Source of the DNA: an uncultured Bacilli bacterium
Lineage (GTDB): Bacteria; Bacillota_I; Bacilli_A; RF39; UBA660
NCBI GenBank assembly: GCA_944363665.1
Contig: CALVUS010000001.1
Location: 1 to 52,462 of the forward strand
Direction: 5' to 3'
DNA: 52,462 bases
How positions within the stretch are numbered: the first letter of the stretch is position 1; every line of letters begins with the position of its first letter. The translations under genes were made by a program, and so were the position numbers. The notes beneath the pieces were generated by a model that had not been told where the DNA came from, searched no databases, and saw only the letters and a program-made list of their open reading frames with translations. This document shows, one piece after another, positions 10,045-50,278 of the stretch.

Positions 10045-10092
10045 ATAGGCGATTTAAAAGATATATTTTTGCTATGTAAAGGGGGTACTAAT

Positions 10093-11710: not shown

Positions 11711-11751
11711 TAAAACAAAAAAGTAGTTCATATAAAAGATATGAACTACTT
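11711..11751 (-). terminator. Rho-independent terminator closing the Tad-like operon
   Basis: 12-bp stem AAGTAGTTCATA / TATGAACTACTT (11721-11732, 11740-11751) followed on the minus strand by TTTTGTTTTA. Confidence 0.75.
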
Positions 11752-11768
11752 TACTATTTAAATTTTAT

Positions 11769-12122
11769 TTAGTCTCCAAAATTTTCGTTATAAGCATCTG
11801 TGCAAACGTCACCACCAGGACTAGAAATACATCTAGCACAAACTTCGTATTTATCACTTGTTGAAGTATCAACTAAACGAATAACAAATGATACAATTGT
11901 CGGTACAAAGAATATTGCTACAGCAGCAATACAACGCATTAATAATGATTTTGCTGCTTTAGATACTTCTTTATTATCACTCGAAATTACAGCCTTTCCT
12001 AAGTCTACCATTCCCAAAATAATCAAAATTATAGGAATTACAATTTTAAATACTAATAAAAAATATCCAACTGTTCGCCATATATTAGCAGTATCTGCGC
12101 AAAAAGTATCAACATTCCCCAT
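11769..12122 (-). CDS. VirB2/TrbC-like two-TM hairpin protein (pilin-like), paralog A
   Basis: 117 aa; two TM helices joined by a GKAVISSDNKEVSKAAKSL loop; Cys-containing C-terminal tail; clear paralog of 12179-12532 and of 49753-50205. Confidence 0.55.
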   Translation of the reverse strand: MGNVDTFCADTANIWRTVGYFLLVFKIVIPIILIILGMVDLGKAVISSDNKEVSKAAKSLLMRCIAAVAIFFVPTIVSFVIRLVDTSTSDKYEVCARCISSPGGDVCTDAYNENFGD

Positions 12123-12178
12123 AATTCTAACACTCCTCTCTTTTTCTAACTATATTTTACTCTATTACTCGTTTAAAG

Positions 12179-12532
12179 TCAATCTTTATTGGTAAAAATG
12201 CCTTCATTGTGACTAGTATCACATTTATCATTTGGTGAAGTAAGGCAATCAACACAATTTAAATAATCATCTTGTACTTCAGAAAAGCCACCTATAAAAT
12301 TAAAAAACACATTTATTATTGTGGGAATAAAGAAAATAACTATAGCAATTATAAATTTCTTTAATAATGATGATGCAGTTTTTGACATAGCTTTAGCATC
12401 ACTGTCCATTATAGCTTTAAAAAAATCTATCATTCCTAAAATTATCAAAACTAATGGCACTATAATTTTAATAATCATAATTGCATAACCTACAATTTGC
12501 CAAACCTTTGCTGTTTTGTAACAAAATTCCAT
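12179..12532 (-). CDS. VirB2/TrbC-like two-TM hairpin protein (pilin-like), paralog B
   Basis: 117 aa; same architecture (FKAIMDSDAKAMSKTASSL loop, FFIPTI second helix, CVDC...C tail). Confidence 0.55.
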   Translation of the reverse strand: MEFCYKTAKVWQIVGYAIMIIKIIVPLVLIILGMIDFFKAIMDSDAKAMSKTASSLLKKFIIAIVIFFIPTIINVFFNFIGGFSEVQDDYLNCVDCLTSPNDKCDTSHNEGIFTNKD

Positions 12533-12546
12533 ATTTTACACCCCCA

Positions 12547-13533
12547 TTATTTAAAAATACTAAATATTCCTGAGCCATTAGGATCTATTCTACTAAACCC
12601 TAAGGCAGATAAAAATGCATTAATAATTGGTTGATTATCCAATTTGTCATCCAAATACGGTAAATTGTAAAATACTTTACTTCCACTTTCTTTTTCAAAT
12701 TCCGATACATCTTTTTCCGATAATATACTCCGATTTAATACAATTTTTTTGCCTTTAAGTTCTTCAAAAATCATGTTATCTTTTCTAATTAATTTATTTA
12801 ATTGAATACGTCCAGGTTCTATTAGATAAATAATATCGTTACAATAATTAGTAACATCGCTATTATTTAAATCTACTAGTATAACATCACAATTAGAATT
12901 GCTAGCAATATAATCACTAAAATTCATACTGGAAATGCTATCTAAACTGGAATCATTAAAATATTCAAAATCATTTGCATCTATTTCTACTGCTTTTACT
13001 TTATACACTTTGTCCAAATGAATTTTCATCAAATATGTTAAAGTTGTTGCTCCAGCATGATCCGTAACATTTTTGATACCAATAACTTTTTGAGATATTT
13101 TACCTCTTGTTGTATCAACCGCATTTTCATTTAAAGCTGGTCTTTTGTAGCCATTAATATTATGAAAATTTGCTACATCTTTATAAGAATTTGGGTTATC
13201 TATCAAATATCTTATAACATTAATATCATTTGTAAAATTATATATCCCCATCGATATTAATTGTGAAATATACATTGGTGAATTTACAACCTCAGAATCA
13301 TCTAATAACAATATTACTTTGGACATATCAAAATTAACTGACAAATTTTGCATGGTTTTTATATCTTGATAATTTTTAATAGCAGTTATATCAATAATCA
13401 TTTTATTAAAATAGAAATTAGAAAACTGAGCTATTAATTCATCAACCGAAAACTCTCCATTTATACTTTTAATAATATCAATATCTAAACTAGCCAGTAA
13501 AGCTTGATATTTATTAGAAATTATTACATTCAT
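12547..13533 (-). CDS. tadZ: TadZ/CpaE-like protein: receiver-like N-domain plus ParA/MinD-like domain with degenerate Walker A
   Basis: 328 aa; position in the locus; P-loop-like VIGIKNVTDHAGATTLTY lacks the canonical GK[ST] lysine; a later hhhhD (VILVDLN) resembles a Walker B. Confidence 0.55.
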   Translation of the reverse strand: MNVIISNKYQALLASLDIDIIKSINGEFSVDELIAQFSNFYFNKMIIDITAIKNYQDIKTMQNLSVNFDMSKVILLLDDSEVVNSPMYISQLISMGIYNFTNDINVIRYLIDNPNSYKDVANFHNINGYKRPALNENAVDTTRGKISQKVIGIKNVTDHAGATTLTYLMKIHLDKVYKVKAVEIDANDFEYFNDSSLDSISSMNFSDYIASNSNCDVILVDLNNSDVTNYCNDIIYLIEPGRIQLNKLIRKDNMIFEELKGKKIVLNRSILSEKDVSEFEKESGSKVFYNLPYLDDKLDNQPIINAFLSALGFSRIDPNGSGIFSIFK

Positions 13534-14009
13534 ATTATTCCTCCGATCAAATTATTGCTGCCAACAAAGGAATTAGTTCTTCCATTTACATTAAATGTTG
13601 CTATATCTCCCAAAAAAGGTAAATTAAATCTATAAAATACAATTATATCGTAATAAATATAGTCACGTGAATCACTAGGTTGACTAACTTGAGAAAAACA
13701 ATAATAATATCTTGTTGCTCCATCAGCTTCTTCATAATTGCCTTCTAAGTCTATTGCTCCGTACCATTTTACGTTATCATCTTGAGGACAATTTCCCGTA
13801 GTAGTATAACTTTGACCTACTAAATAATTATTAATTATATCACTAGATTGGGAAGTTAAACCCTCATATTTTTCAATAATAGATAGCATTTCATTTTTTA
13901 CACGATAAGCTTTAGAATAGTTTAAAACAAGGGTTAAAAAACATGCAAAAATTAAAATGAATAAAATCATTATTTGAAAAACCCAAGTAGAACCTGATAC
14001 TTCTCGCAT
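13530..14009 (-). CDS. Pseudopilin-like (TadE/TadG-position) membrane-anchored protein, paralog 1
   Basis: 159 aa; short polar N-terminus (MREVSGS) then a hydrophobic helix; paralogous to 14024-14524 (shared ...VKNE(M/I)L(S/N)IIE... and ...YTTTGNCP/YRTTGTCP blocks). Confidence 0.45.
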   Translation of the reverse strand: MREVSGSTWVFQIMILFILIFACFLTLVLNYSKAYRVKNEMLSIIEKYEGLTSQSSDIINNYLVGQSYTTTGNCPQDDNVKWYGAIDLEGNYEEADGATRYYYCFSQVSQPSDSRDYIYYDIIVFYRFNLPFLGDIATFNVNGRTNSFVGSNNLIGGII

Positions 14010-14023
14010 AATCTTATCTCCTT

Positions 14024-14524
14024 TTAATTTTTATATATTATTCTAGTTTCACCTTTTGTTTGAAAATTATATAGTTGTTTAATAACTGGAATATCTAATT
14101 GATAAAACACCACTATTTGAACATAAGATCCATCAACAAAATCATCAGTAGCTACTGTTCCAGCACCTAGTTCTCCTTCCAGGTAACCATCTAATTCTGA
14201 AGTAACATTAACTTTTCTTATACAAACAGATGCTTCTTGGCCAGATGTCACTGGAGATCCATTACGTTGATATCCTTGATATTCATCAGGGCAGGTTCCC
14301 GTAGTTCGATAAGATGTTTCATTGATTGTATCAATTATATCTTCACTTAAATTGCCATTATCTCCTTCATATACTCCATTATTAGCTTCAATTATATTTA
14401 AAATTTCGTTTTTTACACCAAAAGCATTTGAATTATTAATTGTTAAGCACATAATTGCTGTAAATAGCAATACAAATAATATAAATATTTGAAAAATAGT
14501 TGTAATACTTATTGATTCCTTCAT
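14024..14524 (-). CDS. Pseudopilin-like membrane-anchored protein, paralog 2
   Basis: 166 aa; same architecture as 13530-14009. Confidence 0.45.
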   Translation of the reverse strand: MKESISITTIFQIFILFVLLFTAIMCLTINNSNAFGVKNEILNIIEANNGVYEGDNGNLSEDIIDTINETSYRTTGTCPDEYQGYQRNGSPVTSGQEASVCIRKVNVTSELDGYLEGELGAGTVATDDFVDGSYVQIVVFYQLDIPVIKQLYNFQTKGETRIIYKN

Positions 14525-14533
14525 TAAAACTCA

Positions 14534-14812
14534 CTATCCTCTATAAAGACAATCAAAGCTATTATCACTAGATCTGTCTTCCTCTTCATCATCCCAACAT
14601 GTGCAATACATTATTCCTTCTACTTCATGCAAACCAGGTAATCCTCTAATAGATTCTTCACTACAGTTGCAAACTGCCTTATTACATTGTGCAGTACTTG
14701 TAAAGTTAAAATCTAGCATTGGCCACAAAACACCGAAAAAAAAGGCCATCAAGACCCCAATTGATATCATAACAATTACTGCTAGATTTATTTCTCCTGT
14801 AGCCTCTTTCAT
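14534..14812 (-). CDS. Pilin-like protein with Cys-rich C-terminal extension
   Basis: 92 aa; MKEATGE leader-like N-terminus followed by a 22-25 residue hydrophobic helix; six Cys in the C-terminal half. Confidence 0.55.
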   Translation of the reverse strand: MKEATGEINLAVIVMISIGVLMAFFFGVLWPMLDFNFTSTAQCNKAVCNCSEESIRGLPGLHEVEGIMYCTCWDDEEEDRSSDNSFDCLYRG

Positions 14813-14829
14813 AATTCTTTACCAACTAT

Positions 14830-15087
14830 CTATTCAGAATCATCAGCTGCATCATCATATTGAATTGGATCACCTTCAGCACAGTAACATATCTTTTGAT
14901 CAGTATCAACTCCGCCAGATCCTTGTGTTGAATCTAATTTTCCACCAGGACACATATTAGAACATGTACTTCTTGCCAAACTAGTTTGAATACCAGGCCA
15001 AACTACAGCATAGAAGAATGCTCCTACAGCAACTATCGCAACGACAGTAACAACAGTCATATTTAATTCACCAGTCGCTTCTTTCAT
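14830..15087 (-). CDS. Pilin-like protein (probable major subunit) with Cys-containing acidic C-terminus
   Basis: 85 aa; identical MKEATGE N-terminus; hydrophobic helix; four Cys; strong RBS AAAGGAGGAA; its own promoter immediately upstream. Confidence 0.55.
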   Translation of the reverse strand: MKEATGELNMTVVTVVAIVAVGAFFYAVVWPGIQTSLARSTCSNMCPGGKLDSTQGSGGVDTDQKICYCAEGDPIQYDDAADDSE

Positions 15088-15119
15088 ATTAAATAAATTC
15101 CTCCTTTTACCATATTTTT

Positions 15120-15148: not shown

Positions 15149-15171
15149 TTTTTTTTATTATGTAATGTCAA

Positions 15172-15960
15172 CTAAACATTCATCATTTGAACAACTGCAA
15201 GGATTAGCAAAACCATCAGTCCAGCTCCTGTAGCAATTAACATGCTCATAGTTTTGCCTTCCATCTTCTCCAAGCGATTTTTATAACGTGTCTCTCTAGC
15301 TTTTTGTTGCAAACTAGATATAGATCTTGAAAACATTAAAATTTGTTCTTGTTTACGTTCTTGACGACCTAAACTTAAACGATATAAAAGTCGCATCATT
15401 CTCATTGAATCACGAACAGGATATTTACGAGCAAATTCCATATAAGGTTCAATTGTATCATCACCAGCATTTATAGCATCAATCATTTCTTGTAACCCAT
15501 CTTTAAATATTTCCGGAGCATCTGCCATTGATTTACCAATTGCAACTGGAACAGTATAATGTTGAATAAGAATTTCTAAATTCTTTAAATAATGCGGTAA
15601 CATAGCATCTATTTGATGCATATGACGTGTATAGAATTTTTTAATATCACTATAAGGTTGCTTAAATATAAATATTCCCACAACAGCAATAATTAGTAAC
15701 TTTACAGCATTTAAGTCTTGAATCATGTATAAAAATAATAACACCATAACAATCAATGCATTTTTAATTCTTTTATTAAATAATACATCAGGATTCATAG
15801 CTGTACCATATTTAGCTCGAACATAAAAATCCCAATCACTTTCTTTAAGCCTTAAAAATAGCATTTGATTATCGCTAATCATTTGATTAATATTAATTTG
15901 TCCTGAAACTGTCATAATAAGAAAAACAATTACCGCTATAATAATAATTTCTACTTGCAT
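15172..15960 (-). CDS. tadC: TadC-like platform protein (T2SS-F/GspF-like fold)
   Basis: 262 aa; TM helices at the N-terminus, around residues 70-100 and at the C-terminus, flanking a cytoplasmic domain of about 130 aa; directly follows the tadB-like gene with a 1-nt overlap. Confidence 0.55.
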   Translation of the reverse strand: MQVEIIIIAVIVFLIMTVSGQININQMISDNQMLFLRLKESDWDFYVRAKYGTAMNPDVLFNKRIKNALIVMVLLFLYMIQDLNAVKLLIIAVVGIFIFKQPYSDIKKFYTRHMHQIDAMLPHYLKNLEILIQHYTVPVAIGKSMADAPEIFKDGLQEMIDAINAGDDTIEPYMEFARKYPVRDSMRMMRLLYRLSLGRQERKQEQILMFSRSISSLQQKARETRYKNRLEKMEGKTMSMLIATGAGLMVLLILAVVQMMNV

Positions 15961-16865
15961 TATTCCACCCCTACATCTTCATTATAATACTTTTCTCCAG
16001 AAAGAAGGAAAAAAGAATTGATAAGAACAACTGCATGTAGTATTAACTGAACGTACCAAATTTCGATAAGTTCAATATAGTTTTCTTCACCTAACATATA
16101 TCGTAAAACAACAACTAATAAATATAATGTTAAACCAAATTTGATAAAACGGCCATGAAAATTTTTACGATCCATTTGGTCACGATAAACACCTTCAACA
16201 AGAGCATCGATATCCATTGACATATTTTCTAAAGCTTGTCCTGAATCACGAGCACCTTCTTTAGTTATTTGTAAAAATAATTGATGCATATTTTTGACCA
16301 TATAATATGGGTACTTATTATTAAAATATTGAATAGATTCATCTATCGTTCCATTTTGATAAGACATTTCAATCATTTTTTTGACATCTTCTAAAACTGG
16401 ATTTTCTAAAATACCCGAATCTCTTACTCCTTCTAAAGCTTTTACAAAACTTTGAGTAGTATTAAATTCCATTATAACATTGGTTGTATAGGTTTGAATT
16501 TGTTCAAATAAAAATTCACTATAAATTCTTTGGCAACGTAAATATGCTAAATATGGAATAAAAGAAATAGCAACAATTGCATATATAGCAGCTATAATGA
16601 TACTGTAAAAATAAAAGTATCCTATTAAAACTGCAAAACCACCAAATAATAATACTTGTGTTATATATTGCCTAGTGGTATATTCTTGACCTAATTCAAT
16701 AGCTTTTTCGCGAACCATTTTGAATGAATAAGGAGCATATTTATCATATATTTTGGTTGCATTTCCCGCTACAAACTTATAAACGTTTTCACCAGGATTA
16801 CGACGATAAATTAAAACAAAAGCCGCTATAAGCAATAATATTACTAATTCTAAAAGTGTTCCCAT
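15960..16865 (-). CDS. tadB: TadB-like platform protein (T2SS-F/GspF-like fold)
   Basis: 301 aa; same TM/cytoplasmic-domain/TM layout; immediately downstream of the secretion ATPase. Confidence 0.55.
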   Translation of the reverse strand: MGTLLELVILLLIAAFVLIYRRNPGENVYKFVAGNATKIYDKYAPYSFKMVREKAIELGQEYTTRQYITQVLLFGGFAVLIGYFYFYSIIIAAIYAIVAISFIPYLAYLRCQRIYSEFLFEQIQTYTTNVIMEFNTTQSFVKALEGVRDSGILENPVLEDVKKMIEMSYQNGTIDESIQYFNNKYPYYMVKNMHQLFLQITKEGARDSGQALENMSMDIDALVEGVYRDQMDRKNFHGRFIKFGLTLYLLVVVLRYMLGEENYIELIEIWYVQLILHAVVLINSFFLLSGEKYYNEDVGVE

Positions 16866-16878: not shown

Positions 16879-17994
16879 TTATAAACTTTCTATTCCCATA
16901 ACCTCTGTATTATTGGCAATACTATTTTCTTCTTTAACAAAGTAATTAGGATCCATATCTACTCCTTGAACACCTAAATAAGCAATTAAATACTTACTAG
17001 GATTATTAAAAGAAAATTTGCCATCTAAGCTTTTTTTAAATAAAATATTTGATTTTGCTTCATTATTATCATCAACATAAAATTCTACTACTTCTATTAT
17101 TTCTCTTTGGAATCTTCCTAATTCTTTACTCATATAGCCTTTAACATGAATACCAATCTGAACATAACGATGAATAGATTTTAAAAATTGATCTATATCT
17201 TGACTACTTTCTAACAAACTATACATCCGCATTGGAATATTTAAAGCTCTATCTGAGTGAATAGTAGAAATAATATTATGCCCAGAGGAAATAGAGTTAC
17301 GAACAGCAGTAACTGCCTCTGCAGAACGAACTTCTGATAACAATATCCATCTTGGATTTTGCCGCATACAAGTAACTAAAACATCAGAATATGAAGCAAT
17401 ATTATTAGTTTTCATAGCAACTATATCACGATGGGGAAAAATTTTATCCAAATGTAATTCTAGTGTATCTTCAATGGTAATTATTTTTTCATTTTCTTTA
17501 GTATGACTGGCTAAATATTTAACTAGTTCTGTTTTCCCACTCCCAGTTTCACCACTAACAATTATATTGCAGTGTCCTTCTACACAAGTCATTAAAAAAT
17601 CATGAAGATTTTCAGTAACATATTGTTCATTTAACAACTTTTCTTTATTTAGACGGATTTTGGCAGGCGTCTTTCTTATTAAGCAAGCAATTCCATTTGT
17701 AGCAATTGAATCATGAACAAAATTAAGACGTAATTCTGCAGATTCGGCATCCAAAAAAGGATGAGCCATATTAAAAGTTTTACCCATAACATTTGAACAT
17801 TGAAAAGCTAATTTTTCCATTAATGCATTATTTATTTCTGGTCTTTCAACACGATAAACACCCTTATTAAGAGTTTTTAGCCAAACTTGACCACCATTAG
17901 AATATGAAACGTCAGTTATATTATCTTCTTCTAAAAACTCTTTTAAAGGTCCAAAATCTATTTGTGAAAATATTGCATCATTCACACTTGTCAC
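16879..17994 (-). CDS. tadA: CpaF/TadA-family secretion ATPase (VirB11/GspE superfamily)
   Basis: 371 aa; Walker A SGETGSGKTE, ITIEDTLEL Asp box, MRQNPRWILLSEVR Walker B region, STIHS His box. The true start may be the second in-frame GTG (17985), 6 nt after GAGGTG. Confidence 0.85.
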   Translation of the reverse strand: MTSVNDAIFSQIDFGPLKEFLEEDNITDVSYSNGGQVWLKTLNKGVYRVERPEINNALMEKLAFQCSNVMGKTFNMAHPFLDAESAELRLNFVHDSIATNGIACLIRKTPAKIRLNKEKLLNEQYVTENLHDFLMTCVEGHCNIIVSGETGSGKTELVKYLASHTKENEKIITIEDTLELHLDKIFPHRDIVAMKTNNIASYSDVLVTCMRQNPRWILLSEVRSAEAVTAVRNSISSGHNIISTIHSDRALNIPMRMYSLLESSQDIDQFLKSIHRYVQIGIHVKGYMSKELGRFQREIIEVVEFYVDDNNEAKSNILFKKSLDGKFSFNNPSKYLIAYLGVQGVDMDPNYFVKEENSIANNTEVMGIESL

Positions 17995-18000: not shown

Positions 18001-18765
18001 TTAATTATTAATATCTAATACCATACTATCAATTAATTGATTTAATGCTAAATTAGAGTAAGCAGTTTCAGCACCTTCAATTGTATATAATTTATTCCTT
18101 GGAACTGGATATAAATCCCAATTTAAATATTCAATCCAACTTAGATACTCAAACATTTCGGTTGGTACTGCAAAAGATAACCATGCAGGTGTTCTTACTT
18201 CATTGCCGTCAAATACATTTTGACCATTAGAATCTTTTACAGAAACCACATCTATACTAGTAATAAATTCATCATAAACAATTTGACCGTCAAGACTTGC
18301 TCTTAACCATAAATCTATTTTATCTCCTGGATATATTGAATTTGCATAAGTACTAGTATTATCAACCTTTAACCAATATAAAGTATACCCATTTGGTAAG
18401 TCTTCTTGTTCTCTTTCTTTTAAATCTTCTCGATCTACTACTTGACTAGTATAAAACATAGCACCTTCCTTAATCGATGTTTCATTCTTGACATATCTAC
18501 CAACTAATTGCGATGTAGAAGTAATAACACTAGCATTTTTTAAAAATTCACTATTTACTTCTACAAATTCAAAATCTTCTGAAGTAATTTCCTCTGTAGC
18601 TGTTATATCTCGAGTAGCAACTGGTACTCGTTGTGGATTTACAGCATTACTTACTGTCATATTATAGAAAAACCATAGCACTATTACTCCTGCTAGAACT
18701 GCTAAAATTGTCACTGTATTACGATTTAATAAAAATTTTCGCAAATTATTAATAATATTTCCCAT
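18001..18765 (-). CDS. cpaB: CpaB/RcpC-like Flp pilus assembly protein (SAF domain), paralog 1
   Basis: 254 aa; N-terminal TM helix, then RVPVATRDITATEEITSEDFEFVEV... typical of the CpaB SAF domain. Confidence 0.7.
   Translation of the reverse strand: MGNIINNLRKFLLNRNTVTILAVLAGVIVLWFFYNMTVSNAVNPQRVPVATRDITATEEITSEDFEFVEVNSEFLKNASVITSTSQLVGRYVKNETSIKEGAMFYTSQVVDREDLKEREQEDLPNGYTLYWLKVDNTSTYANSIYPGDKIDLWLRASLDGQIVYDEFITSIDVVSVKDSNGQNVFDGNEVRTPAWLSFAVPTEMFEYLSWIEYLNWDLYPVPRNKLYTIEGAETAYSNLALNQLIDSMVLDINN
18307..18354. repeat. 48-nt tract identical to 19095-19142 inside the two cpaB paralogs
   Basis: ccataaatctattttatctcctggatatattgaatttgcataagtact occurs in both genes (encodes STYANSIYPGDKIDLW), while the flanking DNA is diverged. 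Confidence 0.9.
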
Positions 18766-18767
18766 TT

Positions 18768-19553
18768 TTATCCTCCGTTTGAGTAATCAGCACCCATATC
18801 CATAGTTTTATCTTTAATTATCTGTAAAAGTTGCTCATTAGATATTTCCGTTGCCCCACTTTCAGTATTATACAATTTATTTCTTGGGACTGGAGTTATA
18901 CTAATGTCTGATATAAATTCTGCAATTTTTAAATAACGGTACATATCAGTAGGAACCGCAAATAACAACCAAGCAGGTGTTCTTCCACTTGTTACATCAA
19001 ATACATTTTGGCCAGAAGAATCTCTTACTGCCAATACTTCAATTCCCGAAATAAATTCACTAAAAACTAGTAAACCGTTTTGTCTAGTTTGCATCCATAA
19101 ATCTATTTTATCTCCTGGATATATTGAATTTGCATAAGTACTTACATTATTAACTTGCAATTGATAAATAGTATATCCATCTGGAATTTCATCAAATATC
19201 GAATTTGGCAACTCTTCCTTTTCAACTACTTGAGTTGTATAAAACATACCACCTTCAGGAATGGATGTACCTGTACTAACATATTTACCAACTAAATCAT
19301 TGACATTTGTTATAACATCAGCATCACTTAAAAAACGATTGCTAATTTCTACCATTTCTATATCATCTTGAGTAATTTCCGAAGTTGCAGATAAATCTTT
19401 ATTTGCCACCGGAACTCGTCTTGGATTAACGGCATTGTTAACTCGATATGTATAAAAACCAAACAATACCGCTACTCCAACAACAAATCCTAAAATAGTT
19501 ACTGTTGTCTTATTGGTAAAAAATCTTTTAAAAGTTCCTATTAGACCTCCCAT
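18768..19553 (-). CDS. cpaB: CpaB/RcpC-like Flp pilus assembly protein (SAF domain), paralog 2
   Basis: 261 aa; RVPVANKDLSATSEITQDDIEMVEI...; collinear paralog of 18001-18765. Confidence 0.7.
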   Translation of the reverse strand: MGGLIGTFKRFFTNKTTVTILGFVVGVAVLFGFYTYRVNNAVNPRRVPVANKDLSATSEITQDDIEMVEISNRFLSDADVITNVNDLVGKYVSTGTSIPEGGMFYTTQVVEKEELPNSIFDEIPDGYTIYQLQVNNVSTYANSIYPGDKIDLWMQTRQNGLLVFSEFISGIEVLAVRDSSGQNVFDVTSGRTPAWLLFAVPTDMYRYLKIAEFISDISITPVPRNKLYNTESGATEISNEQLLQIIKDKTMDMGADYSNGG

Positions 19554-19571: not shown

Positions 19572-19979
19572 TTAAAGTGCATTACCTTCAATTATTGCAT
19601 CAATTCTTTCTACCATATCAAACGATTCTGGATCTCCAACAACATTAAAGGTATTTGATTTACTTTTAACCTCAACACTGACCTTTGGTGGCGCTTCATA
19701 AACCCCATAAAAACTTACAGTATATGTTGTAGATAAAGAAGCAGTTTCAGCAAATCTTCTCAAAAAGCTTTCATAAAATTTTTCTTTATTAATTTTAATT
19801 TCGCCATAACTTCGATAATAAGAATAATCTACCGCATCTACTAAAGCTGCTTCTGTTATTTCTTTTATCAAATAATAATCTTGAGTACTAGAAGTAGTTA
19901 AGTTTTGTACTAATAACATTATAACTACCACAAATATTCCGAGTAATATTAGCCAGTATCCCCAAAATGCATTTTTCAT
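19572..19979 (-). CDS. Hypothetical membrane-anchored protein of the Tad-like operon
   Basis: 135 aa; one N-terminal TM helix; no recognisable motif. Confidence 0.5.
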   Translation of the reverse strand: MKNAFWGYWLILLGIFVVVIMLLVQNLTTSSTQDYYLIKEITEAALVDAVDYSYYRSYGEIKINKEKFYESFLRRFAETASLSTTYTVSFYGVYEAPPKVSVEVKSKSNTFNVVGDPESFDMVERIDAIIEGNAL

Positions 19980-19992: not shown

Positions 19993-22900
19993 CTACTTCC
20001 ATGATGGACCACCAATAACTGTTAGAGCACCAGAATTTTCTTGTAAAGTTGGCATTTCCCATGTACTCCATAATGTCCAATATCCATCAGCATTAGCAGC
20101 ATCATTGTCATCAGATCTACTACCAACTGGAGTTCTATTATATACAGTAATATCATCACCATAATCAGCAATTAACTCATCAATTACTTCACTATAACAG
20201 TATATATCAGGAACTACTGTACCATCTTCCAAAGTAGCATCATAACATGTTAACGTATCATTAGCATAGCCACCAGAGCCTTCAGCAGAAGCATTAATGC
20301 TTTTCAATTCATTAATTAAATCAGATGTAAGTCTAACGCTAAATGCTAAAGATGAATCATCACCAGTTTTATCATAAATCATTTCATTTTCAGTTTCTAT
20401 TTCATCGATCGTAGCCTCAGCTTTATCAACTAAAAGTTGTAATGGAGCCATACTAGTAGTAATATTCCAATTTGTCCAATCTTCAGCAGTTGTCCAGTTA
20501 TATCCAGGTTGTCTATCTACAGAATTGACATCTGTTGATATGATTGGTTTTACATTAATGTCTAATTCATCTAAATTAAATATGCAGTTTACACAATCAA
20601 ACACACATTCTGGACAGTCAACCCATTCACAGCCATCTTCATCACATTCAAAATCACAATTTGGACATTCAGGGGAACGACAATCACTTTCATAATAACA
20701 TAAATAATTACCATCAAAAGTTTCTTCGTCAATACCTTTAGCATATGCAACACTTTCGTCATTTATTTCGATTTCAGTAGTTCCATCTGGATTAACGTCT
20801 AATCTTACAACATCTATTAATCTACCTAATTCACCATCATCATAAAATTCACCAAGGTCTTCAATTAATAATTGATATATTCCTCCACCAACAACACTAG
20901 TAGATACTGGCAATACATTTTCTAAAGCTTCCAATTGCAATTTATCGCCAGCATAATCATTTACAATCGTTATTTTGCCATTAGCAGCTATTTGATAAAA
21001 CACAGTTGGAGTTTCATAGCTTTGAGCTTTTTTAACAGTTTTTCTAATAAATCTTGCTTGAGAAATATCTCTAGAATCGGTTTCACAGCCATCACCAGCA
21101 AAACAAACAACATAATCACGATTTTCATAAGCACCAGATACATTAGATGCATAATTCCATTCATCTATATCTTGAATATCTTGAGTAATATTTCCAGCTT
21201 CTGTTGGATCGTCACTATCTGTTTCACCAGTCATATCAAATACATCACTAGCGCCTTCACAAACATATTTATCATCCGCAGTTTCATAACAAACTTCAAT
21301 TTCACTTTCATATTCAAATTCATCTTCAATAGGAATTAAATAATCAGCATCAGTTATAGATGATTGTTTTAACAAATCATAATATGTTGTGAACATTGGT
21401 TCATCTTCACCACGGAATTCATTATAGAAATATTTAATTTTTTGATTAAATTGATATACATTTTCCCACATTCCAGTACATGCATTTAAATCTGTAATCA
21501 ATTTTTGATAATCTTCATAAGCTTCCTCTAAATCTTCTTCTGCTTGATCACGTTTTTCTTGCCAATCTTCTAACCAGTCATCATATTTCTCATTCGCTGA
21601 TTCATCTATTCCGCCGCAACAATGCTTTGTACATCCTCCTTCAGGTGATACATCACAGCAATAATGATTATGACTATCCGTAAATGATGTTCCTGAATCA
21701 TCTATATTTTCTGAAGAAAAATATCCATTTTCATTAACAAATGAAAATTCATAACTTAAATAATCATCCCACTCAATTTCTATAGTGTCTCGTTTAGTAC
21801 CGTAACCGCATTCCCCTTCTATTGTATTTTCAATCCAACTTTCTACTCTAGCATTTGCAGCATTCCATCTATTCATGGCATCTACCATTCTACTTTGAGC
21901 ACTTTCAATTTCATCAAGATATTTTTCTATATCTATTCCCATATCATCTACTGTACCTGCTGTATAACAATCTTTTTTACCTTCAACTCGTGCTGTTAAT
22001 TTGAAATTTGTACCACAGTTTACATCAGAAATAATTGGATCTAATGTAATTCCGCCTAAAGCTTCTTCATTATCTGTCCAACTAATATAATCTTCTTTAC
22101 AGTAAACTGAACAAAATTCATTGTCTGAATTTACACCACCATTTTCTTCAGAAAGTAAATAACTATTTTGAGCTTCATCAGTATTATTTAATATACATTT
22201 TTTGATTTCTTCTGAAGTATAAACATTGGCAACAGCATCTTCTTCATCATCACTACAAACCGGAACTTCTATAACAGTTTCACAAATTTCGCTTTGTTCT
22301 GCACATGTAATTCTGCCACTAACTTCACCAGTTTGAGCTCCACCTTCTTCATCAGCTTTAGCTACCACGAAAAATCTTTGAGTATTTGTTGTACTAGGTC
22401 TTAATAAAGCACCGTAATATTCAACACTTGTATCATGATAATCATAGCTTAAAGTAAAATCTGCTGCTGTACATTCTTCAATAGTCAAATCTTTAGAAAC
22501 TAAAATACGAATTCTAATTATTCCACTTCTTTTATCTTGAGTACCAGTCAAAGATCCAGTTGGCAAAGCCTTAGAAATATCTGTACTAGCATCCAATGTA
22601 GCCCAGTCAGTAGTTTCGGTAGAATATTCAATGGATTCAATTGTAATTCCATTAGCATTACATTGTGGACAATCCAATTGAACATTATTTATATATCCAT
22701 CTTCAGCAGCAATATTGTTGACTTCCATATTGATATAAACATATTCAGTTGCTGTAGTTTCATTTTGTTCTACAGATTCTGTATCGCCAACTCTCGCATC
22801 AATAGAAAAAGCTAAATTTTTGTTTCTATAATAATCTGATGCTGCTTCAACTCCTAATCTAAACAATTTTTGAGCAGCATAGATAACGTTATAAGAAGTA

Positions 22901-23577
22901 CTTCCTTCTGCTCCATAAATCATAACAATATTAGGATCATACCAGCTACCATACTTTCCAGCGATATATCTTTGGATGCATGCTTGATCATTTGTCGTAC
23001 AGCTATTTAATCCAGGAACTATTTCTGTAGCTCCCATGCCACTATAAATTGTTGCCCAATGAACACCTAGATTTATTAAAGATGATCCTTTTGCTCGATA
23101 TGCGGCAGATAATGTTGCATTACCACCCCAACCATAAAGTCCCATTGTAAATGCCCGTTGAGCTATACTTGTAGCTAAATAAAGGTCATTGCCACTAACA
23201 ACAGTTCCGTTATCTAAAGTTAAACTAGAATTAAATTGATTATATCCATTTGCTAAAATAGCTAATATCCCATGATCATATGAATTTACTTCATCATGTT
23301 GGCTATCTGCTCCTAAAATACGATCTATTGTATATGAGCCTCCACCTTGAAGATGTGGATCTTCACAGTATGTTACATAATCTTTACCATTTACACTACT
23401 ATGATATTTTATTTCACCATTATAAGTATAATTCCCATATCTAAGACCATCAGCTGTTACAGTCCCATCTTTTACAATAGAAAAGCTAGCACCTTCACTA
23501 AAATCAATAGCTTTAACTTCATTAAAGCCTACAATAAACATTAAACCTAATATTAATAATTTTACACTTTTTTTCAT
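19993..23577 (-). CDS. Large secreted Cys-rich acidic protein, putative adhesin with an N-terminal thioester-(TQXA)-like domain
   Basis: 1194 aa; signal peptide ...NEVKA/IDF; YCEDP (Cys71), ANGY, then LYLATSIAQRAF (Gln140), resembling the YC..P / GY / ATQxA(I/V)W pattern of Cys-Gln thioester domains; 10 Cys in 39 residues at DNA 20584-20700; no LPXTG motif or C-terminal TM helix. Confidence 0.6.
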   Translation of the reverse strand: MKKSVKLLILGLMFIVGFNEVKAIDFSEGASFSIVKDGTVTADGLRYGNYTYNGEIKYHSSVNGKDYVTYCEDPHLQGGGSYTIDRILGADSQHDEVNSYDHGILAILANGYNQFNSSLTLDNGTVVSGNDLYLATSIAQRAFTMGLYGWGGNATLSAAYRAKGSSLINLGVHWATIYSGMGATEIVPGLNSCTTNDQACIQRYIAGKYGSWYDPNIVMIYGAEGSTSYNVIYAAQKLFRLGVEAASDYYRNKNLAFSIDARVGDTESVEQNETTATEYVYINMEVNNIAAEDGYINNVQLDCPQCNANGITIESIEYSTETTDWATLDASTDISKALPTGSLTGTQDKRSGIIRIRILVSKDLTIEECTAADFTLSYDYHDTSVEYYGALLRPSTTNTQRFFVVAKADEEGGAQTGEVSGRITCAEQSEICETVIEVPVCSDDEEDAVANVYTSEEIKKCILNNTDEAQNSYLLSEENGGVNSDNEFCSVYCKEDYISWTDNEEALGGITLDPIISDVNCGTNFKLTARVEGKKDCYTAGTVDDMGIDIEKYLDEIESAQSRMVDAMNRWNAANARVESWIENTIEGECGYGTKRDTIEIEWDDYLSYEFSFVNENGYFSSENIDDSGTSFTDSHNHYCCDVSPEGGCTKHCCGGIDESANEKYDDWLEDWQEKRDQAEEDLEEAYEDYQKLITDLNACTGMWENVYQFNQKIKYFYNEFRGEDEPMFTTYYDLLKQSSITDADYLIPIEDEFEYESEIEVCYETADDKYVCEGASDVFDMTGETDSDDPTEAGNITQDIQDIDEWNYASNVSGAYENRDYVVCFAGDGCETDSRDISQARFIRKTVKKAQSYETPTVFYQIAANGKITIVNDYAGDKLQLEALENVLPVSTSVVGGGIYQLLIEDLGEFYDDGELGRLIDVVRLDVNPDGTTEIEINDESVAYAKGIDEETFDGNYLCYYESDCRSPECPNCDFECDEDGCEWVDCPECVFDCVNCIFNLDELDINVKPIISTDVNSVDRQPGYNWTTAEDWTNWNITTSMAPLQLLVDKAEATIDEIETENEMIYDKTGDDSSLAFSVRLTSDLINELKSINASAEGSGGYANDTLTCYDATLEDGTVVPDIYCYSEVIDELIADYGDDITVYNRTPVGSRSDDNDAANADGYWTLWSTWEMPTLQENSGALTVIGGPSWK

Positions 23578-24338
23578 ATTTCACTACTCCTACGTCTTTT
23601 TATAATTACAACCACTACTATCCCCACTATTACAACTAAACTAATTCCTCCTACTATAAAAGGAACTTTATGTTCAGATATAAATTTTCCTATAGACTCC
23701 AACCAAGATAAATCTTCTTCATCATTAGCATCACCGTTTTGGATTCTATCTACCTCAGCAGTAACATTATCAATAAAATCTGCAAAATCTATATCACCAA
23801 ATGTAACATATTCTTGACATAAATAATAATCAGATGCCACTTCACACATACCATAAGTTGAATAACTATTATATCTTGGCAATGTCAAAGTCATTGTCCT
23901 TATAGTGTCATCTTGACATCCATTATTGCCAGTTGATTTGACAGTTATTGTCAATCTTGCAACTTCGGACACGTCATTCCATTCAATAGCCAATGTGCCA
24001 TTATTAGTATCTGAAAAATTATATCTTGTTACATCGCTAGATTTATCACTACTTACTTCGATATAAAGATTTTCAGTTAAATTTAAAATGTTAATTTGCA
24101 AATAATCTGTCTTTGGAACCCAAGTTTCTTCTTCTTCGGTTCCTAAAATAGAATCTGGAGGCCCATATAAATTAGGATCTAATTCTTTTTCTTTAATTTC
24201 ATAATTTGCTCTTATCTCACTAGCTTCATTATTTAAAGTTGCCCTTTGGGTATAATCACAAGTACCAACCGCCTTTGCTGTACCAATAAACATTCCAAAA
24301 ACAGCTAGTGATAAAAATATATATTTCAATCTATACAT
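23574..24338 (-). CDS. Secreted, C-terminally tail-anchored protein (first gene of the operon)
   Basis: 254 aa; signal peptide ...GTAKA/VG; C-terminal TM helix plus KRRRSSEI; ATGA overlap with the 1194-aa gene. Confidence 0.55.
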   Translation of the reverse strand: MYRLKYIFLSLAVFGMFIGTAKAVGTCDYTQRATLNNEASEIRANYEIKEKELDPNLYGPPDSILGTEEEETWVPKTDYLQINILNLTENLYIEVSSDKSSDVTRYNFSDTNNGTLAIEWNDVSEVARLTITVKSTGNNGCQDDTIRTMTLTLPRYNSYSTYGMCEVASDYYLCQEYVTFGDIDFADFIDNVTAEVDRIQNGDANDEEDLSWLESIGKFISEHKVPFIVGGISLVVIVGIVVVVIIKRRRSSEI

Positions 24339-40249: not shown

Positions 40250-42427
40250 TTAATCATCATCTCCAAAAAAATCATCAAAAAATTCATCATCAGAAATAAT
40301 ATTATCATCTATTATTTTACTATCAGAATCAATGTTTATCTTTGGTTTATCATTTTTAGCATTAACATTTTTTATGATATCATTATCATTACCTTTTTCC
40401 AAAGTTTCTTTATTTAATACCGAATCTTTAGTTTTTGGTAAATTTAGATCTTCAATATCAAATAATACATTTTTACCTGATTCTATATTTAAATTATTAA
40501 TTTGATTTTTACTTTCTTGTTCTTGCTTATCCAATTCTTTAAATTTTTCATCCAAATCTTTTAACATCTTATCTATATCCAAAGTGTTAAGGGCATTATC
40601 AGGATTAGGCATGCTATATGGATTTACTTCATTAAAGCCCATAAATGGTGATGCAGGCCTAAATGGATTGGGACTTCTAAACGGATTATCCCCTAATTCA
40701 GCCATCTTTTTACTTTTTTCTTCAGTAACAAATTTTTTTAAATCAAATATTTCTACTTCTTGTTTCATTCTCGTTGGATATGCTTCTTCTTTTCTTTCTA
40801 TTCCCCAATTCATTTTAAAATCAGGTTCTAATTTTGTTCTAAATGGATTCGTTCTAAGCCTTATGATAATTGCCTCAAATAACTTCATTTTTTGTAAATC
40901 AGTCACAGTGATAAGTGGTCTTGTTGCACTCTTATCTTTTTCATCAGTAATTTTAACTTCTCCACACATTTTACTAATTTCTTCTAAGGCTTTCATTTCT
41001 GTACTTATTAAATATACCCAGTTACCACAGTTACCTTTAATTATTTCAGCTACGTTATCACCATAAACATCATTTAATTGAGCAAAGTTTTGAATTATAA
41101 ATGTAAAACGTATATCTCTACTTCTAGCTGCTGATACCATAGCATCAACATCTTTAAGTGGAGGCATATTTGCAAATTCATCTAAAATGAAATTAGTTCT
41201 AAATGGTAATTTGCCACCATTTTCCTGAGCAACATCAATTAAAGTTTCATAACATTGTTTAATAAATATAGTCATTAAACTATGATATGTTTTCTTTTCA
41301 TCATGAATAATCATAAAAACAGCAGTTTTACCATTACCAATTTCTTTCATGTCAAAATCACTGTATGAAAGCATCTCACTTAAAGCTTCACCAGTTGCAA
41401 ATTTTCTAATTTTTTGTCTAAATGTAGATAGTTGGCCTCCTTTAGTTTCACTCGGAGCATTTATTACAGCAGATGCAAAAATGTATTCGTTAGACTTTTC
41501 GCCCTTCATTCCAAAATACTCTTTAATGTAATTACTAGTTGCATATCTTTCTTCACCAACAGTACTCATTACATTAATACTATTTAAATTTACTTCTCTT
41601 TCTTTTGCATCTTTAAATAAACCTAAAGCTAGACCGGAAAAATAGTCTGCTGAAGATTTTTCCCAGAAATCAGACTCTGACTTATTATTTGGATCATACA
41701 ATATATTTAAAGCTACATCATCTAACAATTCTATTGCTTTATCTTGATTACCACTACGATAATATTTTAAAGGTAGTGTTAAAGGATTCCAAGAATTACC
41801 ACGTAAAGGTTCTCGAAAATTTAAAACAATTATTTTATATCCCTTTTCTTTTAAATATGAAGCACTGTATTTATAAATTTCTCCTTTAGGGTCAGTAATT
41901 ATCATACTTTCACCCTTCTTAGCAAGTAAATTTACCATTGGTTTAACTATGGTTTGAGTTTTACCACTACCAGTAGAACCAATAACTAAATTATGATATT
42001 CTCCATTATCTACCCATATTTCCTTACCATTATTAATTAACGGAATACCTGCAGCATCTAAAGTTTCACTTTGAGGCAATACTTTAACTACATCACTTTG
42101 ACTTTTAATATCTTTATCACTAGCCCACTTAGAATAACCATCATTGGATTTTTCTTTAAATTTTATACCAATACCATGGCCACCTTTATCTTTTTTAAAA
42201 ATATATGAAGAAACACTAGAAAAAATTGCTACTAAAGCCGCTATAAATAAAAACAATGTAACTGGTAAATACATCCCCGTAAAAGCTTTAAAAGGAAGCA
42301 AACCATAAAAAGTTCCTTCATTTGCAAGAGATGCTACATTTAATACTGCAATGGCACAAAGATATAATAATAAAACACAATAAATGCAAAATAATAAAAA
42401 ATCTTTTGGCTCAATTTTAAATTTCAT
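40250..42427 (-). CDS. virD4: Type IV coupling protein (VirD4/TraG family)
   Basis: 725 aa; two N-terminal TM helices, Walker A GSTGSGKTQT, Walker B FILDEFANMP; 151-aa low-complexity C-terminal tail ending DDEFFDDFFGDDD. Confidence 0.9.
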   Translation of the reverse strand: MKFKIEPKDFLLFCIYCVLLLYLCAIAVLNVASLANEGTFYGLLPFKAFTGMYLPVTLFLFIAALVAIFSSVSSYIFKKDKGGHGIGIKFKEKSNDGYSKWASDKDIKSQSDVVKVLPQSETLDAAGIPLINNGKEIWVDNGEYHNLVIGSTGSGKTQTIVKPMVNLLAKKGESMIITDPKGEIYKYSASYLKEKGYKIIVLNFREPLRGNSWNPLTLPLKYYRSGNQDKAIELLDDVALNILYDPNNKSESDFWEKSSADYFSGLALGLFKDAKEREVNLNSINVMSTVGEERYATSNYIKEYFGMKGEKSNEYIFASAVINAPSETKGGQLSTFRQKIRKFATGEALSEMLSYSDFDMKEIGNGKTAVFMIIHDEKKTYHSLMTIFIKQCYETLIDVAQENGGKLPFRTNFILDEFANMPPLKDVDAMVSAARSRDIRFTFIIQNFAQLNDVYGDNVAEIIKGNCGNWVYLISTEMKALEEISKMCGEVKITDEKDKSATRPLITVTDLQKMKLFEAIIIRLRTNPFRTKLEPDFKMNWGIERKEEAYPTRMKQEVEIFDLKKFVTEEKSKKMAELGDNPFRSPNPFRPASPFMGFNEVNPYSMPNPDNALNTLDIDKMLKDLDEKFKELDKQEQESKNQINNLNIESGKNVLFDIEDLNLPKTKDSVLNKETLEKGNDNDIIKNVNAKNDKPKINIDSDSKIIDDNIISDDEFFDDFFGDDD

Positions 42428-42484: not shown

Positions 42485-43306
42485 CTAATTTCCATCAAAT
42501 GTTAGACTATAAGTATTATCAGTATATTCATATATTAAATATGTTGTTTCACCAGCATTACTAAAATAACCTTTTTGTATAAATATACTATCATATTGAG
42601 AATCTAATAAATTTATAAAATAACCTATCCTATATGTTGGAGACACTAATATATTTGCTGAATTTACAAGCTCTTTTTCTAATACTATTATTTCTCCGTT
42701 TAAATTTACATATAATAAATTAAAATATACAGATTGATCTATCTCACTAAATATATTTGATAGAGATATTACTTTATCCATTATTCCGTTACTATCTAAA
42801 TCAAGCATTACTTTTTGATTTGTTGACAATGACATCATATCAATGTTATTTTCTAAAATTGTGGAAGCTTCTTGTAAATCAATAGAATCTACAACAGAAA
42901 TATTATTATTTCTAACATTCATTTTTAATCCACTTGTTCCTGCAACTAAATCTCCATCATAATCTATATAATTATTATTTTCATCAAATATATTCCAATT
43001 TACTCCTTTTTTTAAATAATAATTTCCAAAAAATGTTTTATTTACATAAATATCAAATAAGACTTCATCAAATTCTTCATTACTAGCTAGTGACCATATT
43101 CCACCATTATTTTTTAATTGAATTATATTGTTTATTTCCAAATAATCATATGTAATTTCCACTGGATCATTATCAATATCAATATTCGACCCGTTATTAT
43201 CGGGATTATCATTTGGTTCTTCTTTAACCATAAATATAATGCCAACTATTAAAGCATATCCCAATAATAATATTAAAATTAATATACAAGCTGCCTTTTT
43301 ATTCAT
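42485..43306 (-). CDS. Membrane-anchored T4SS-associated protein in the PrgL/VirB8-like position
   Basis: 273 aa; N-terminal TM helix; call based on position between the hydrolase and coupling protein genes; no motif evidence. Confidence 0.35.
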   Translation of the reverse strand: MNKKAACILILILLLGYALIVGIIFMVKEEPNDNPDNNGSNIDIDNDPVEITYDYLEINNIIQLKNNGGIWSLASNEEFDEVLFDIYVNKTFFGNYYLKKGVNWNIFDENNNYIDYDGDLVAGTSGLKMNVRNNNISVVDSIDLQEASTILENNIDMMSLSTNQKVMLDLDSNGIMDKVISLSNIFSEIDQSVYFNLLYVNLNGEIIVLEKELVNSANILVSPTYRIGYFINLLDSQYDSIFIQKGYFSNAGETTYLIYEYTDNTYSLTFDGN

Positions 43307-50205: not shown

Positions 50206-50249
50206 TATAATCACTCCCATCTTTACTATTTGTGCAATTTCACACGTAA

Positions 50250-50278
50250 ATTATATCATTAATTTATTAATGTGACAA
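50250..50278 (-). promoter_or_regulatory. T4SS module promoter TTGTCA-N17-(TGa)TATAAT
   Basis: Minus strand: -35 = rc of 50273-50278, 17-nt spacer, extended consensus -10 = rc of 50250-50255. Confidence 0.55.

Follow-up and report, generated by a model that had tools for sequence, protein, structure and literature searches.

Related two-helix hairpin proteins, a candidate pilin-type component, at a Tad-like operon and a type IV secretion system module of an uncultured gut Bacilli bacterium

Hairpin proteins A, B and C

The window analyzed here is a stretch of 52,462 nucleotides from an uncultured Bacilli bacterium (GenBank assembly GCA_944363665.1, contig CALVUS010000001.1, positions 1 to 52,462; Genome Taxonomy Database (GTDB) lineage RF39, UBA660); its G+C content is about 28%, and the minus strand carries nearly all of its genes. 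It contains a Tad-like operon and a module of genes for a type IV secretion system (T4SS), each of which includes genes for proteins with two transmembrane (TM) helices, here termed paralogs A, B and C (Table 1). Paralogs A and B form the 3' end of the Tad-like operon; a 328-amino-acid (aa) open reading frame (ORF) closes the 13-gene operon, B begins 14 bp past this ORF, 56 bp lie between B and A, and a terminator-like hairpin past A marks the end of the Tad-like/B/A transcription unit. Approximately 38 kb separate A and B from the T4SS genes of the window, where C is located directly upstream of a VirB6-like gene, 10 bp apart. The three proteins are considered to be members of one large two-helix hairpin family, for which a role as the pilin-type (VirB2-like, PF18895) component of a Gram-positive T4SS is estimated to have a probability of roughly 60%.

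A and B are 43% identical (E 4e-28), and A/C and B/C share 29-31% identity over 52-68 residues (E 5e-10 and 3e-11). Comparison of two family profiles with hhalign (A1, 28 sequences; A2, 25 sequences) gives a probability of 98.6% and an E value of 5.8e-16 over 73 columns. As composition alone can make membrane proteins look alike, TM1, the loop and TM2 of C were shuffled separately with the composition of each kept; the observed score was reached by 0 of 2000 shuffles (z = 11.2 and 9.2). On these comparisons A, B and C are judged to be homologous, and the shared architecture and alignable sequence described in a first-pass annotation of this DNA are upheld, with hairpins also predicted for A and C by AlphaFold2. 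Its coordinates on the minus strand were likewise right, the three motifs it quoted are present verbatim, and the start it gave for C (50205) is retained as the probable one because the closest homologue, P0121, begins MAIFKNK.

The AlphaFold2 model of A is a long helical hairpin with helices at residues 4-46 and 50-84 (predicted local distance difference test, pLDDT, 80.7); the model of C is a long hairpin as well, with helices at 76-109 and 112-146. The hairpin loop is Lys-rich (net charge +2 to +3, with 5-6 Lys/Arg), and the tails are net negative in five of the six cases counted, with values of +1 for the N-terminal tail of B and 0 for the short C-terminal tail of C; the Lys-rich loop and mostly acidic ends therefore predict, by the positive-inside rule only, that both ends are outside and the charged loop is inside, as is typical of VirB2. 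A and B are leaderless and start 16 (A) and 12 (B) residues ahead of TM1. C is predicted to have a signal peptide and, ahead of the hairpin, an N-terminal extension of about 45 aa; the putative leader consists of a hydrophobic helix at residues 3-27 followed by VSA/SV. Three Cys residues are invariant in the A/B family (C8, C95 and C98), a pattern mirrored in the C family by one conserved Cys ahead of TM1 and one conserved C-terminal Cys (in YGTCGIG); in both sub-families the Cys just ahead of TM1 and the Cys after TM2 show little or no variation. The Cys-containing tails of A and B had been described as missing from C, which is correct for the long Cys-rich tail, but C keeps one C-terminal Cys and one ahead of TM1.

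PF18895 (T4SS_pilin) is the only recurrent, non-trivial Pfam match of the hairpin family. At the E thresholds used, it is matched by 18 of 28 relatives (best E 1.4e-7) and by 33 of 145 more distant relatives taken as the best hits of an exhaustive profile search; several relatives bear a precomputed PF18895 label, and two also touch T4SS_CagC. The family is very large, as the exhaustive search returned 10,514 clusters at E <=1e-3 and 6,949 at E <=1e-10. The two-TM helical hairpin of about 70 residues characteristic of PF18895 is present in the AlphaFold2 models of both A and C, and its T4SS-cluster setting is seen where C adjoins VirB6 and where A-like genes head arrays upstream of C/VirB6 in 33 related loci. 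A and B (117 aa) and C (150 aa from its likely start) also have the features of the Gram-positive VirB2-like class, namely a length of 50-150 aa, two predicted TM helices and a PrgF-like topology; proximity to virB6 holds for C, and for A and B only in those relatives in which the loci are continuous. PF04956, the canonical TrbC/VirB2 family, was not matched in any Pfam scan of A, B, C and their relatives. The earlier label of VirB2/TrbC-like is therefore kept in part: a T4SS-pilin-like assignment of PF18895 type, VirB2-like by architecture and context, is supported through the matches of relatives, but membership of TrbC/VirB2 is not.

A link to Mycoplasma pilin-like families, suggested for comparison in the first-pass annotation, was rejected; A gave a single match to the NCBIfam model MAG4940_fam (E 0.009), which was not reproduced by ten other members of the family. 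A separate observation is that two hairpin proteins of relatives (L004, 13257-13724, and P0241) weakly match (E 0.006-0.011) the N-terminal transmembrane part of Mbov_0396 and MMCAP2_0566, which are Mycoplasma VirB6-like models; these matches could be TM noise or a hint of a pilin-like hairpin within VirB6.

Related loci and plasmid precedents

Relatives were scanned using one genome per species; family members occur in 473 species-level genomes, and 80 loci were listed. The layout of the window proteins was mapped against these 80 loci and loci L001-L005, with flanks of up to 10 kb. All 80 listed loci come from metagenome-assembled genomes (MAGs) of uncultured gut 'Bacilli'/'Tenericutes', including Ca. 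Onthocola, Ca. Ventrenecus, CAG:460 and CAG:609; NCBI taxonomy places Ca. Onthocola in Bacilli incertae sedis and Ca. Ventrenecus in Bacteria incertae sedis, and the host MAGs presumably all belong to the GTDB order RF39. In 17 loci the layout is continuous, with the Tad-like operon, the 328-aa protein, a hairpin array, C, VirB6, VirB3, the N-terminal part of VirB4 (VirB4N), VirB4 and a hydrolase (and VirD4) following one another on one strand. A further 34 loci are split as in the window, with the 328-aa protein, B and A followed by a convergent 514-aa gene and uvrA; in 12 loci the array and the T4SS occur alone, and the 3-10 kb upstream contain no Tad gene. A separate, independent scan that started from the C family added four continuous loci (total 21), two of which span CpaB-like genes to VirD4 within 20 kb; it also returned many split-type loci in which C stands alone ahead of the T4SS genes. 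One more member of the split clade was observed outside these scans.

Two adjacencies are maintained across these layouts: C directly upstream of VirB6 is strictly kept in the loci examined, and wherever Tad genes are visible, in continuous and split loci alike, the gene immediately behind that of the 328-aa Tad-operon protein is A-like. The first gene of the T4SS-linked arrays always encodes a short A-like protein and is followed by one to seven genes for proteins of 130-744 aa, giving arrays of up to eight members. By inspection of the L004 sequences, the longer members have an N-terminal signal-like segment, a variable ectodomain and the hairpin at the C-terminus. Some ectodomains among the 145 more distant relatives (P0241-P0385) are GDSL lipase, alpha/beta-hydrolase/esterase or Peptidase_C39_2 domains, N-terminal to the hairpin. 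A lone A-like gene in L052 (9965-10351), a few kb downstream of a leuS-like gene, represents a fourth context; no recognizable Tad or T4SS gene was present within 10 kb on either side of it.

The paralogs had been proposed to tie the two loci of the window together, and related genomes bear this out, with one uninterrupted same-strand cluster that contains the Tad-like operon, the array and the T4SS genes. A neighbor-joining tree built from the 328-aa protein places the split loci in a single clade, which is nested among the continuous-layout lineages. Most simply, this can be read as a single cut of one ancestral cluster, between the array and C; A and B would then probably be array genes that remained on the Tad side, which would explain why a Tad-like operon ends in pilin-like genes, 38 kb away from 'their' T4SS. 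Common descent from one cluster, split at a later time, is a better reading of the link than the 'cross-talk' originally suggested. A search of the literature on these Bacilli ('RF39') in connection with T4SS or Tad systems found nothing relevant.

The VirB4 protein of the window led to the Bacillus thuringiensis conjugative plasmid pBMB68. It carries a MobP3 relaxase and a T4SS block that comprises VirD4, a 126-aa protein with an N-terminal signal-like segment and a hairpin (hyp126), TrbL/VirB6, PrgI, a split VirB4 and an NlpC/P60 protein; a few genes on, on the same strand, lies a Tad-like block with an 851-aa protein, DUF5411, SAF, a ParA-like ATPase, a T2SSE ATPase, two membrane proteins and small proteins. 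In blastp comparisons with the window the VirD4 proteins match at 8e-73, VirB4 at 1e-89, the N-terminal part of VirB4 at 2e-17, SAF at 4e-20, the ATPase at 7.5e-42 and the TadB/TadC-like proteins at 5e-5 and 1e-3. The plasmid thus resembles the window in having both blocks on one strand, in the way VirB4 is split and in the shared DUF5411 family; it differs in being a conjugative plasmid with a MobP3 relaxase and, compared to the continuous clusters, in that the T4SS block precedes the Tad-like block. The hyp126 gene is directly upstream of TrbL/VirB6, but the protein reaches PF18895 only at E 0.023 and has no significant hhalign similarity to A, B or C.

A pLS20-type plasmid of Bacillus subtilis (NZ_CP032868.1) has the overall order of the continuous clusters in a single same-strand operon. 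The Tad-like block comes first and encodes a thioester adhesin, a DUF5411-like protein, a CpaF/VirB11-family ATPase (32% identical to that of the window, 5.5e-46), two polytopic membrane proteins and a DUF4320-like pseudopilin; past two Flp-like genes follow two small ORFs, a 76-aa two-TM hairpin, two ORFs, VirD4, VirB6, a VirB3-like protein and VirB4. The 76-aa hairpin scores 32.1 bits against PF18895, above the cut-off of 26.6, the VirB6 belongs to the p028 family that the VirB6 of the window also matches, and DUF5411 is common to the Tad-like modules of pLS20, pBMB68 and the window. Unlike the window, the plasmid has a MOBP relaxase, VirD4 is ahead of VirB6 rather than at the end, and there is a single short hairpin gene without ectodomain-bearing members, in whose sequence no Cys pattern is seen; no member of the A/B/C family was detected on the plasmid by hidden Markov model search. 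The two Flp-like genes (L121, 19140-19453) are identical 47-aa genes in tandem, encode proteins resembling Flp-type pilins (MLDQNADRMYWVIGAVLVVGALIGL...) and are located between the Tad-like membrane proteins and the PF18895 hairpin gene.

Homologues of the ATPase of the window occur on 618 Firmicutes plasmids, including records of pXO1 and pXO2 size, and 363 of the 618 are predicted to be conjugative; tblastn of the DUF5411 protein of the window against PLSDB plasmids gave no match. On pAW63, in a neighborhood comparable to that of the window and grouped with the pXO2/pBT9727 tra region, the corresponding ATPase was labelled 'VirB11' (PMC1196294). Conjugation operons of the pLS20 and pBMB68 types, and probably of the pXO2/pAW63 type, thus appear to include Tad-like modules, which are under-described there, the ATPase being simply labelled 'VirB11'. 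The first-pass annotation considered it unexpected that such hairpin proteins are co-transcribed with a Tad machine; a Tad/VirB11-type module beside T4SS genes has precedents in pLS20-, pBMB68- and pAW63-type operons, and the combination itself is not new. What looks new is the location on a chromosome, with no relaxase found in the window, the expansion into ectodomain-bearing arrays, the size of the family and the split itself.

Proposed role of the hairpin family

Monoderm T4SS have been said to lack VirB2, save for the pilin arrays of Patescibacteria (PMC4027160, Guglielmini et al. 2014; PMC12857230, December 2025 review; arrays in PMC10633639 and PMC12102498). The premise of the first-pass annotation that Gram-positive T4SS are pilus-less is now outdated, as it is challenged by a December 2025 preprint in which PrgF of pCF10 is VirB2-like and essential for transfer; in the same preprint, 95% of 174 representative Gram-positive plasmids encode VirB2-like proteins close to virB6, and these are modelled as pili on VirB6 pentamers (bioRxiv 10.64898/2025.12.18.695078). 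PrgF(B2) and these VirB2-like proteins resemble A, B and C in having 50-150 aa, two TM helices, a charged cytoplasmic loop and a gene adjacent to virB6, and their proposed stacking on a VirB6 pentamer is that suggested for A, B and C; the hairpin tips look similar as well (MSNDDP in PrgF, ISSDNK in A and VSNDKD in C). PrgF differs in having no detectable sequence relation to A, B and C, in matching Maff2/DUF4134 weakly rather than PF18895, and in being encoded by a single plasmid gene; function has been shown for PrgF only.

The T4SS of Patescibacteria (candidate phyla radiation, CPR) is also chromosomal, of monoderm type and mostly without a relaxase, and its arrays of 2-11 sequence-divergent VirB2-like genes near virB4 were found with PF18895 and PF04956 (PMC10633639, PMC12102498). 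The hosts have reduced genomes, as the gut Bacilli possibly do, and also depend on type IV pili. The CPR system belongs to a different phylum, and that of S. epibionticum has no recognizable coupling protein, in contrast to the VirD4 present here; in PMC10633639 and PMC12102498 CPR arrays are not reported to be fused to a Tad-like operon or to have large ectodomains, and essentiality has been shown in CPR only. The canonical pilins (PF04956; T-pilin and RP4 TrbC) share with A, B and C a two-helix hairpin with the ends outside and the loop in the cytoplasm, as predicted for A, B and C; their gene, like that of C, stands at the head of a VirB6/VirB3/VirB4 block, and C has a putative N-terminal leader. 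T-pilin and RP4 TrbC undergo head-to-tail cyclization, which ties their outside ends, where A, B and C may have a disulfide. They differ from A, B and C in that no sequence or profile similarity is detectable, and in A, B and C the helices are longer, the Lys-rich tip is larger, A and B are leaderless and there are no VirB5/7/9/10 genes.

The ancestor of the lineage would have had one cluster of conjugation-operon type, in which a rearrangement cut between the array and C. This would have left A and B at the end of the Tad-like genes, served by the promoter and terminator of that operon, and C would have retained the T4SS module, driven by a promoter of its own. If they act as VirB2 and PrgF do, the hairpins may insert in the membrane and be extracted and stacked on the VirB6 platform, which could yield a wall-spanning tube or short pilus with a lumen lined by the charged loop. 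The Cys ahead of TM1 and the Cys of the C-terminal tail could form a disulfide that joins the outside ends, a functional echo of the cyclization of T-pilin and RP4 TrbC. The Tad-like filament and the large Cys-rich protein encoded at the head of its operon would make or hold cell contact. That A, B and C form a filament, and any reliance of the T4SS on the Tad-like one, are inferences. As no relaxase, integrase or replication gene is present in the window and its neighbors are housekeeping genes, the machine looks vertically inherited, chromosomal and not mobile.

Several results weigh against a pilin-type role. The match of A to PF18895 (22.2 bits, E 1.5e-4, positions 15-71 of the 71 in the profile) is below the cut-off of 26.6 bits, and B and C do not match PF18895 in the Pfam scan. 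The profile of A, B and C gave an hhalign probability of 0.3% against 17 VirB2 sequences, a narrow set that is all Agrobacterium-type; nothing significant was found against PrgF (probability <1%) or against hyp126 of pBMB68, though the hyp126 loop aligned in register. Foldseek searches of the PDB with both AlphaFold2 models returned generic hairpins only (HtrII, ATP synthase c and ESCRT-III; best E 1.7-3.7) and no pilin, an outcome that is uninformative rather than negative for a bare hairpin, and tblastn with A against PLSDB plasmids gave no match. The helices and the loop region exceed those of VirB2 in length, A and B lack a signal peptide, and N-terminal ectodomains, 100-600 residues long and in some cases enzymatic, are present in many members of the family, which is unusual for a polymerizing pilin. 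The tree on which the nesting of the split loci is based is midpoint-rooted and built from a single protein.

The ectodomains favor the view that the hairpin is a membrane anchor or docking module which does not polymerize but displays surface proteins (adhesins, lipases, peptidases) at the T4SS or close to it, with A and B as ectodomain-less scaffolds or regulators. In most T4SS-linked array members a signal peptide and a variable ectodomain come first and the hairpin forms the very C-terminal end, a size and diversity such as that of the family fit variable surface proteins, and similarity to canonical VirB2 is undetectable. This is considered unlikely, as the short ectodomain-less member is the most conserved element of every array and its first gene, matches to PF18895 recur and the hairpin of the pLS20-type conjugation operon is a PF18895 member; moreover, both termini face outward in solved conjugative pili, which makes N-terminal ectodomains geometrically compatible with a decorated filament (bioRxiv 10.64898/2025.12.18.695078). 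A and B could instead be accessory parts of the Tad-like filament machine and C their T4SS-side counterpart, so that the family would be a shared adaptor of two truly interacting machines. The place of the A-like gene behind the 328-aa protein wherever Tad genes are visible, and the retention of A and B in the Tad transcription unit after the split with short gaps and a shared terminator, agree with such 'cross-talk'; it becomes quite improbable given that arrays accompany the T4SS with no nearby Tad gene in at least 12 loci and that the hairpin gene of pBMB68 adjoins VirB6, about 12 kb from the Tad-like genes of that plasmid. Tad systems elsewhere are not known to have such a hairpin component.

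It is scarcely credible that these small membrane proteins have nothing to do with pilins and are, for example, holins or bacteriocin-immunity proteins, with a resemblance to pilins that reflects only a generic two-TM topology. The generic hairpins from Foldseek are in line with this, as are Pfam side-matches that amount to noise from TM5-TM6 of G-protein-coupled receptors (GPCRs); a PDB sequence search with the A/B family profile likewise gave GPCR TM5-TM6 noise only. The conserved position directly upstream of VirB6 and a charge distribution that predicts both ends outward speak against it. A holin-like placement, which the first-pass annotation had itself named as a finding that would count against its proposal, was rejected, since no holin family is among the matches of A, B, C or 173 relatives and no lysis genes are nearby; no immunity family was matched and no bacteriocin genes were found nearby either.

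With the pilin-type role retained as the preferred reading, a broader proposal, which is rather unlikely, can be made. The joined Tad-like/hairpin-array/T4SS cluster may not be the remnant of a conjugation system but a machine for cell contact, domesticated and vertically inherited in gut Bacilli with possibly reduced genomes, and convergent with the T4SS and pilin array that are essential in Patescibacteria; a hairpin filament would cross the wall, and variable members of it would bring ectodomains of adhesin or enzyme type (lipase, esterase, peptidase) to the surface of a partner cell for uptake or exchange of material. Until 2023-2025 monoderm T4SS were held in textbooks to be without a pilin, and the known exceptions are the Patescibacteria arrays and, from a preprint, the PrgF-type plasmid proteins; the window and its relatives represent a third setting, namely clusters on chromosomes of uncultured gut Bacilli, for which the DNA examined shows no relaxase, and in which hairpin arrays of PF18895 type with ectodomain-bearing members are physically joined to a filament module of Tad/VirB11 type. 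The question raised is whether two filaments, one type IV-like and one VirB2-like, operate in one Gram-positive conjugation system, and it is testable in cultivable Bacillus plasmids.

Gene content of the Tad-like operon and the T4SS module

Table 1. Coordinates and characteristics of the features in the window
Feature	Position	Strand	Description
Terminator-like hairpin	11720..11752	-	14-bp stem and T run, 17 nt past the A stop codon
Paralog A	11769..12122	-	117 aa; short hairpin protein without signal peptide; invariant Cys ahead of TM1; three Cys in C-terminal tail
Paralog B	12179..12532	-	117 aa; architecture as in A
328-aa protein	12547..13533	-	Always just upstream of the first A-like gene; TadZ/CpaE-like position; degenerate P-loop by eye
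Two pseudopilin-like proteins	13530..14524	-	159 and 166 aa; N-terminal hydrophobic segments; TadE match at E 0.09 only
Two small pilin-like proteins	14534..15087	-	92 and 85 aa; both start MKEATGE, then hydrophobic helix; Cys-rich C-termini
Two polytopic membrane proteins	15172..16865	-	262 and 301 aa; TadC/TadB position
CpaF/TadA/VirB11-family secretion ATPase	16879..17994	-	371 aa; PF00437 at 6.6e-28
Two CpaB/RcpC-like SAF-domain proteins	18001..19553	-	254 and 261 aa
DUF5411 protein	19572..19979	-	135 aa; N-terminal membrane anchor; PF17424 at 9e-58
Operon head	19993..24338	-	254-aa protein, then 1194-aa Cys-rich protein
VirD4-type coupling protein	40250..42427	-	725 aa; PF02534 at 7e-53
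Putative wall hydrolase and 273-aa protein	42485..44912	-	537 aa, membrane-anchored (43299-44912); 273 aa, without family
VirB4 ATPase, two ORFs	44927..47278	-	188 aa (N-terminal part) and 594 aa
VirB3/TcpE-like protein	47259..47573	-	104 aa; PF12648 weak, E 5e-4
VirB6-like protein	47592..49742	-	716 aa; PF04610 weak; NCBIfam MMCAP2_0566 6e-18, Mbov_0396 3e-10, pLS20_p028 3e-7
Paralog C	49753..50220	-	155 aa from first ATG, probably 150 aa from 50205; hairpin, then YGTCGIG
Promoter-like site upstream of C	50250..50278	-	11/12 matches and TG; strong

The ATPase of the Tad-like operon matches the NCBIfam VirB11 (1e-33) and TadA (2e-29) families about equally, both far below the cut-offs; its best PDB match is CpaF (1.7e-18), narrowly above VirB11 (8.5e-16). 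In the CpaB/RcpC-like proteins the SAF domain is above its cut-off, with RcpC (3e-4) and TIGR03177 (4e-9 and 2e-10) below theirs. The labels of TadB and TadC for the 301-aa and 262-aa proteins are based on position, topology by eye and the weak matches to their pBMB68 counterparts noted above, and no T2SSF domain was matched in either protein in Pfam or NCBIfam. The 328-aa protein has no Pfam, NCBIfam or PDB match, and its TadZ-like label is inferred from position. The two small proteins that start with MKEATGE match no pilin family in Pfam or NCBIfam; in these starts the Glu is right past the presumed cleavage Gly instead of at +5. No prepilin peptidase of the A24/TadV type was found by Pfam scans in or near the Tad-like operon (12547-24338) or elsewhere in the window. 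The label 'Tad-like' is considered reasonable, though the T2SSF domain, the Flp pilin and the prepilin peptidase are unconfirmed.

At the operon head, the 254-aa protein has a hydrophobic segment at each end, predicted to be a signal peptide and a C-terminal anchor; the 1194-aa protein (19993-23577) starts with a hydrophobic segment resembling a signal peptide and is a candidate adhesin. The 1194-aa protein, the small pilin-like proteins (14534-15087) and the tails of A and B are Cys-rich, the first two including CxxC-like spacings, which suggests heavy use of extracytoplasmic disulfides in a host that is presumably a gut anaerobe.

In the T4SS module, the closest NCBIfam models for VirB4 and VirB6 are families from Mycoplasma integrative and conjugative elements and the pLS20_p028 family. 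The two VirB4 ORFs align to one Mycoplasma VirB4 model of NCBIfam, VirB4_plasma, at positions 95-276 (1e-14) and 294-891 (7e-106). The split is not considered a sequencing frameshift, since it is kept in distant relatives and is the same in the B. thuringiensis plasmid; two-ORF VirB4 genes were also observed at L004 (16112-18462), L087 (13150-15508) and L120 (19245-21830). Matches of the 537-aa putative wall hydrolase to glucosaminidase and C39-like peptidase domains are weak or marginal; at this position relatives have clear NlpC/P60 and CHAP domains or M23 and lysozyme domains, and the domains therefore appear to have been swapped between lineages. Genes for VirB5, VirB7, VirB9 and VirB10 are absent here, and Pfam scans of nearly all larger ORFs identified no relaxase, integrase/recombinase or replication gene in the window.

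The neighbors of the system in the window are housekeeping genes, e.g. those for CysRS, GluRS, Lgt, UvrA and LeuRS; in relatives, dnaB, the L9 gene and femAB adjoin the T4SS module. Convergent with A on the plus strand lies the gene for a 514-aa protein (10069-11613), which is found in the same position in nearly all split-type loci. Asn, Ser and Thr are abundant in this protein, Cys is present, and a membrane anchor is located at the N-terminus; it matches no family and may be another surface component of the system.

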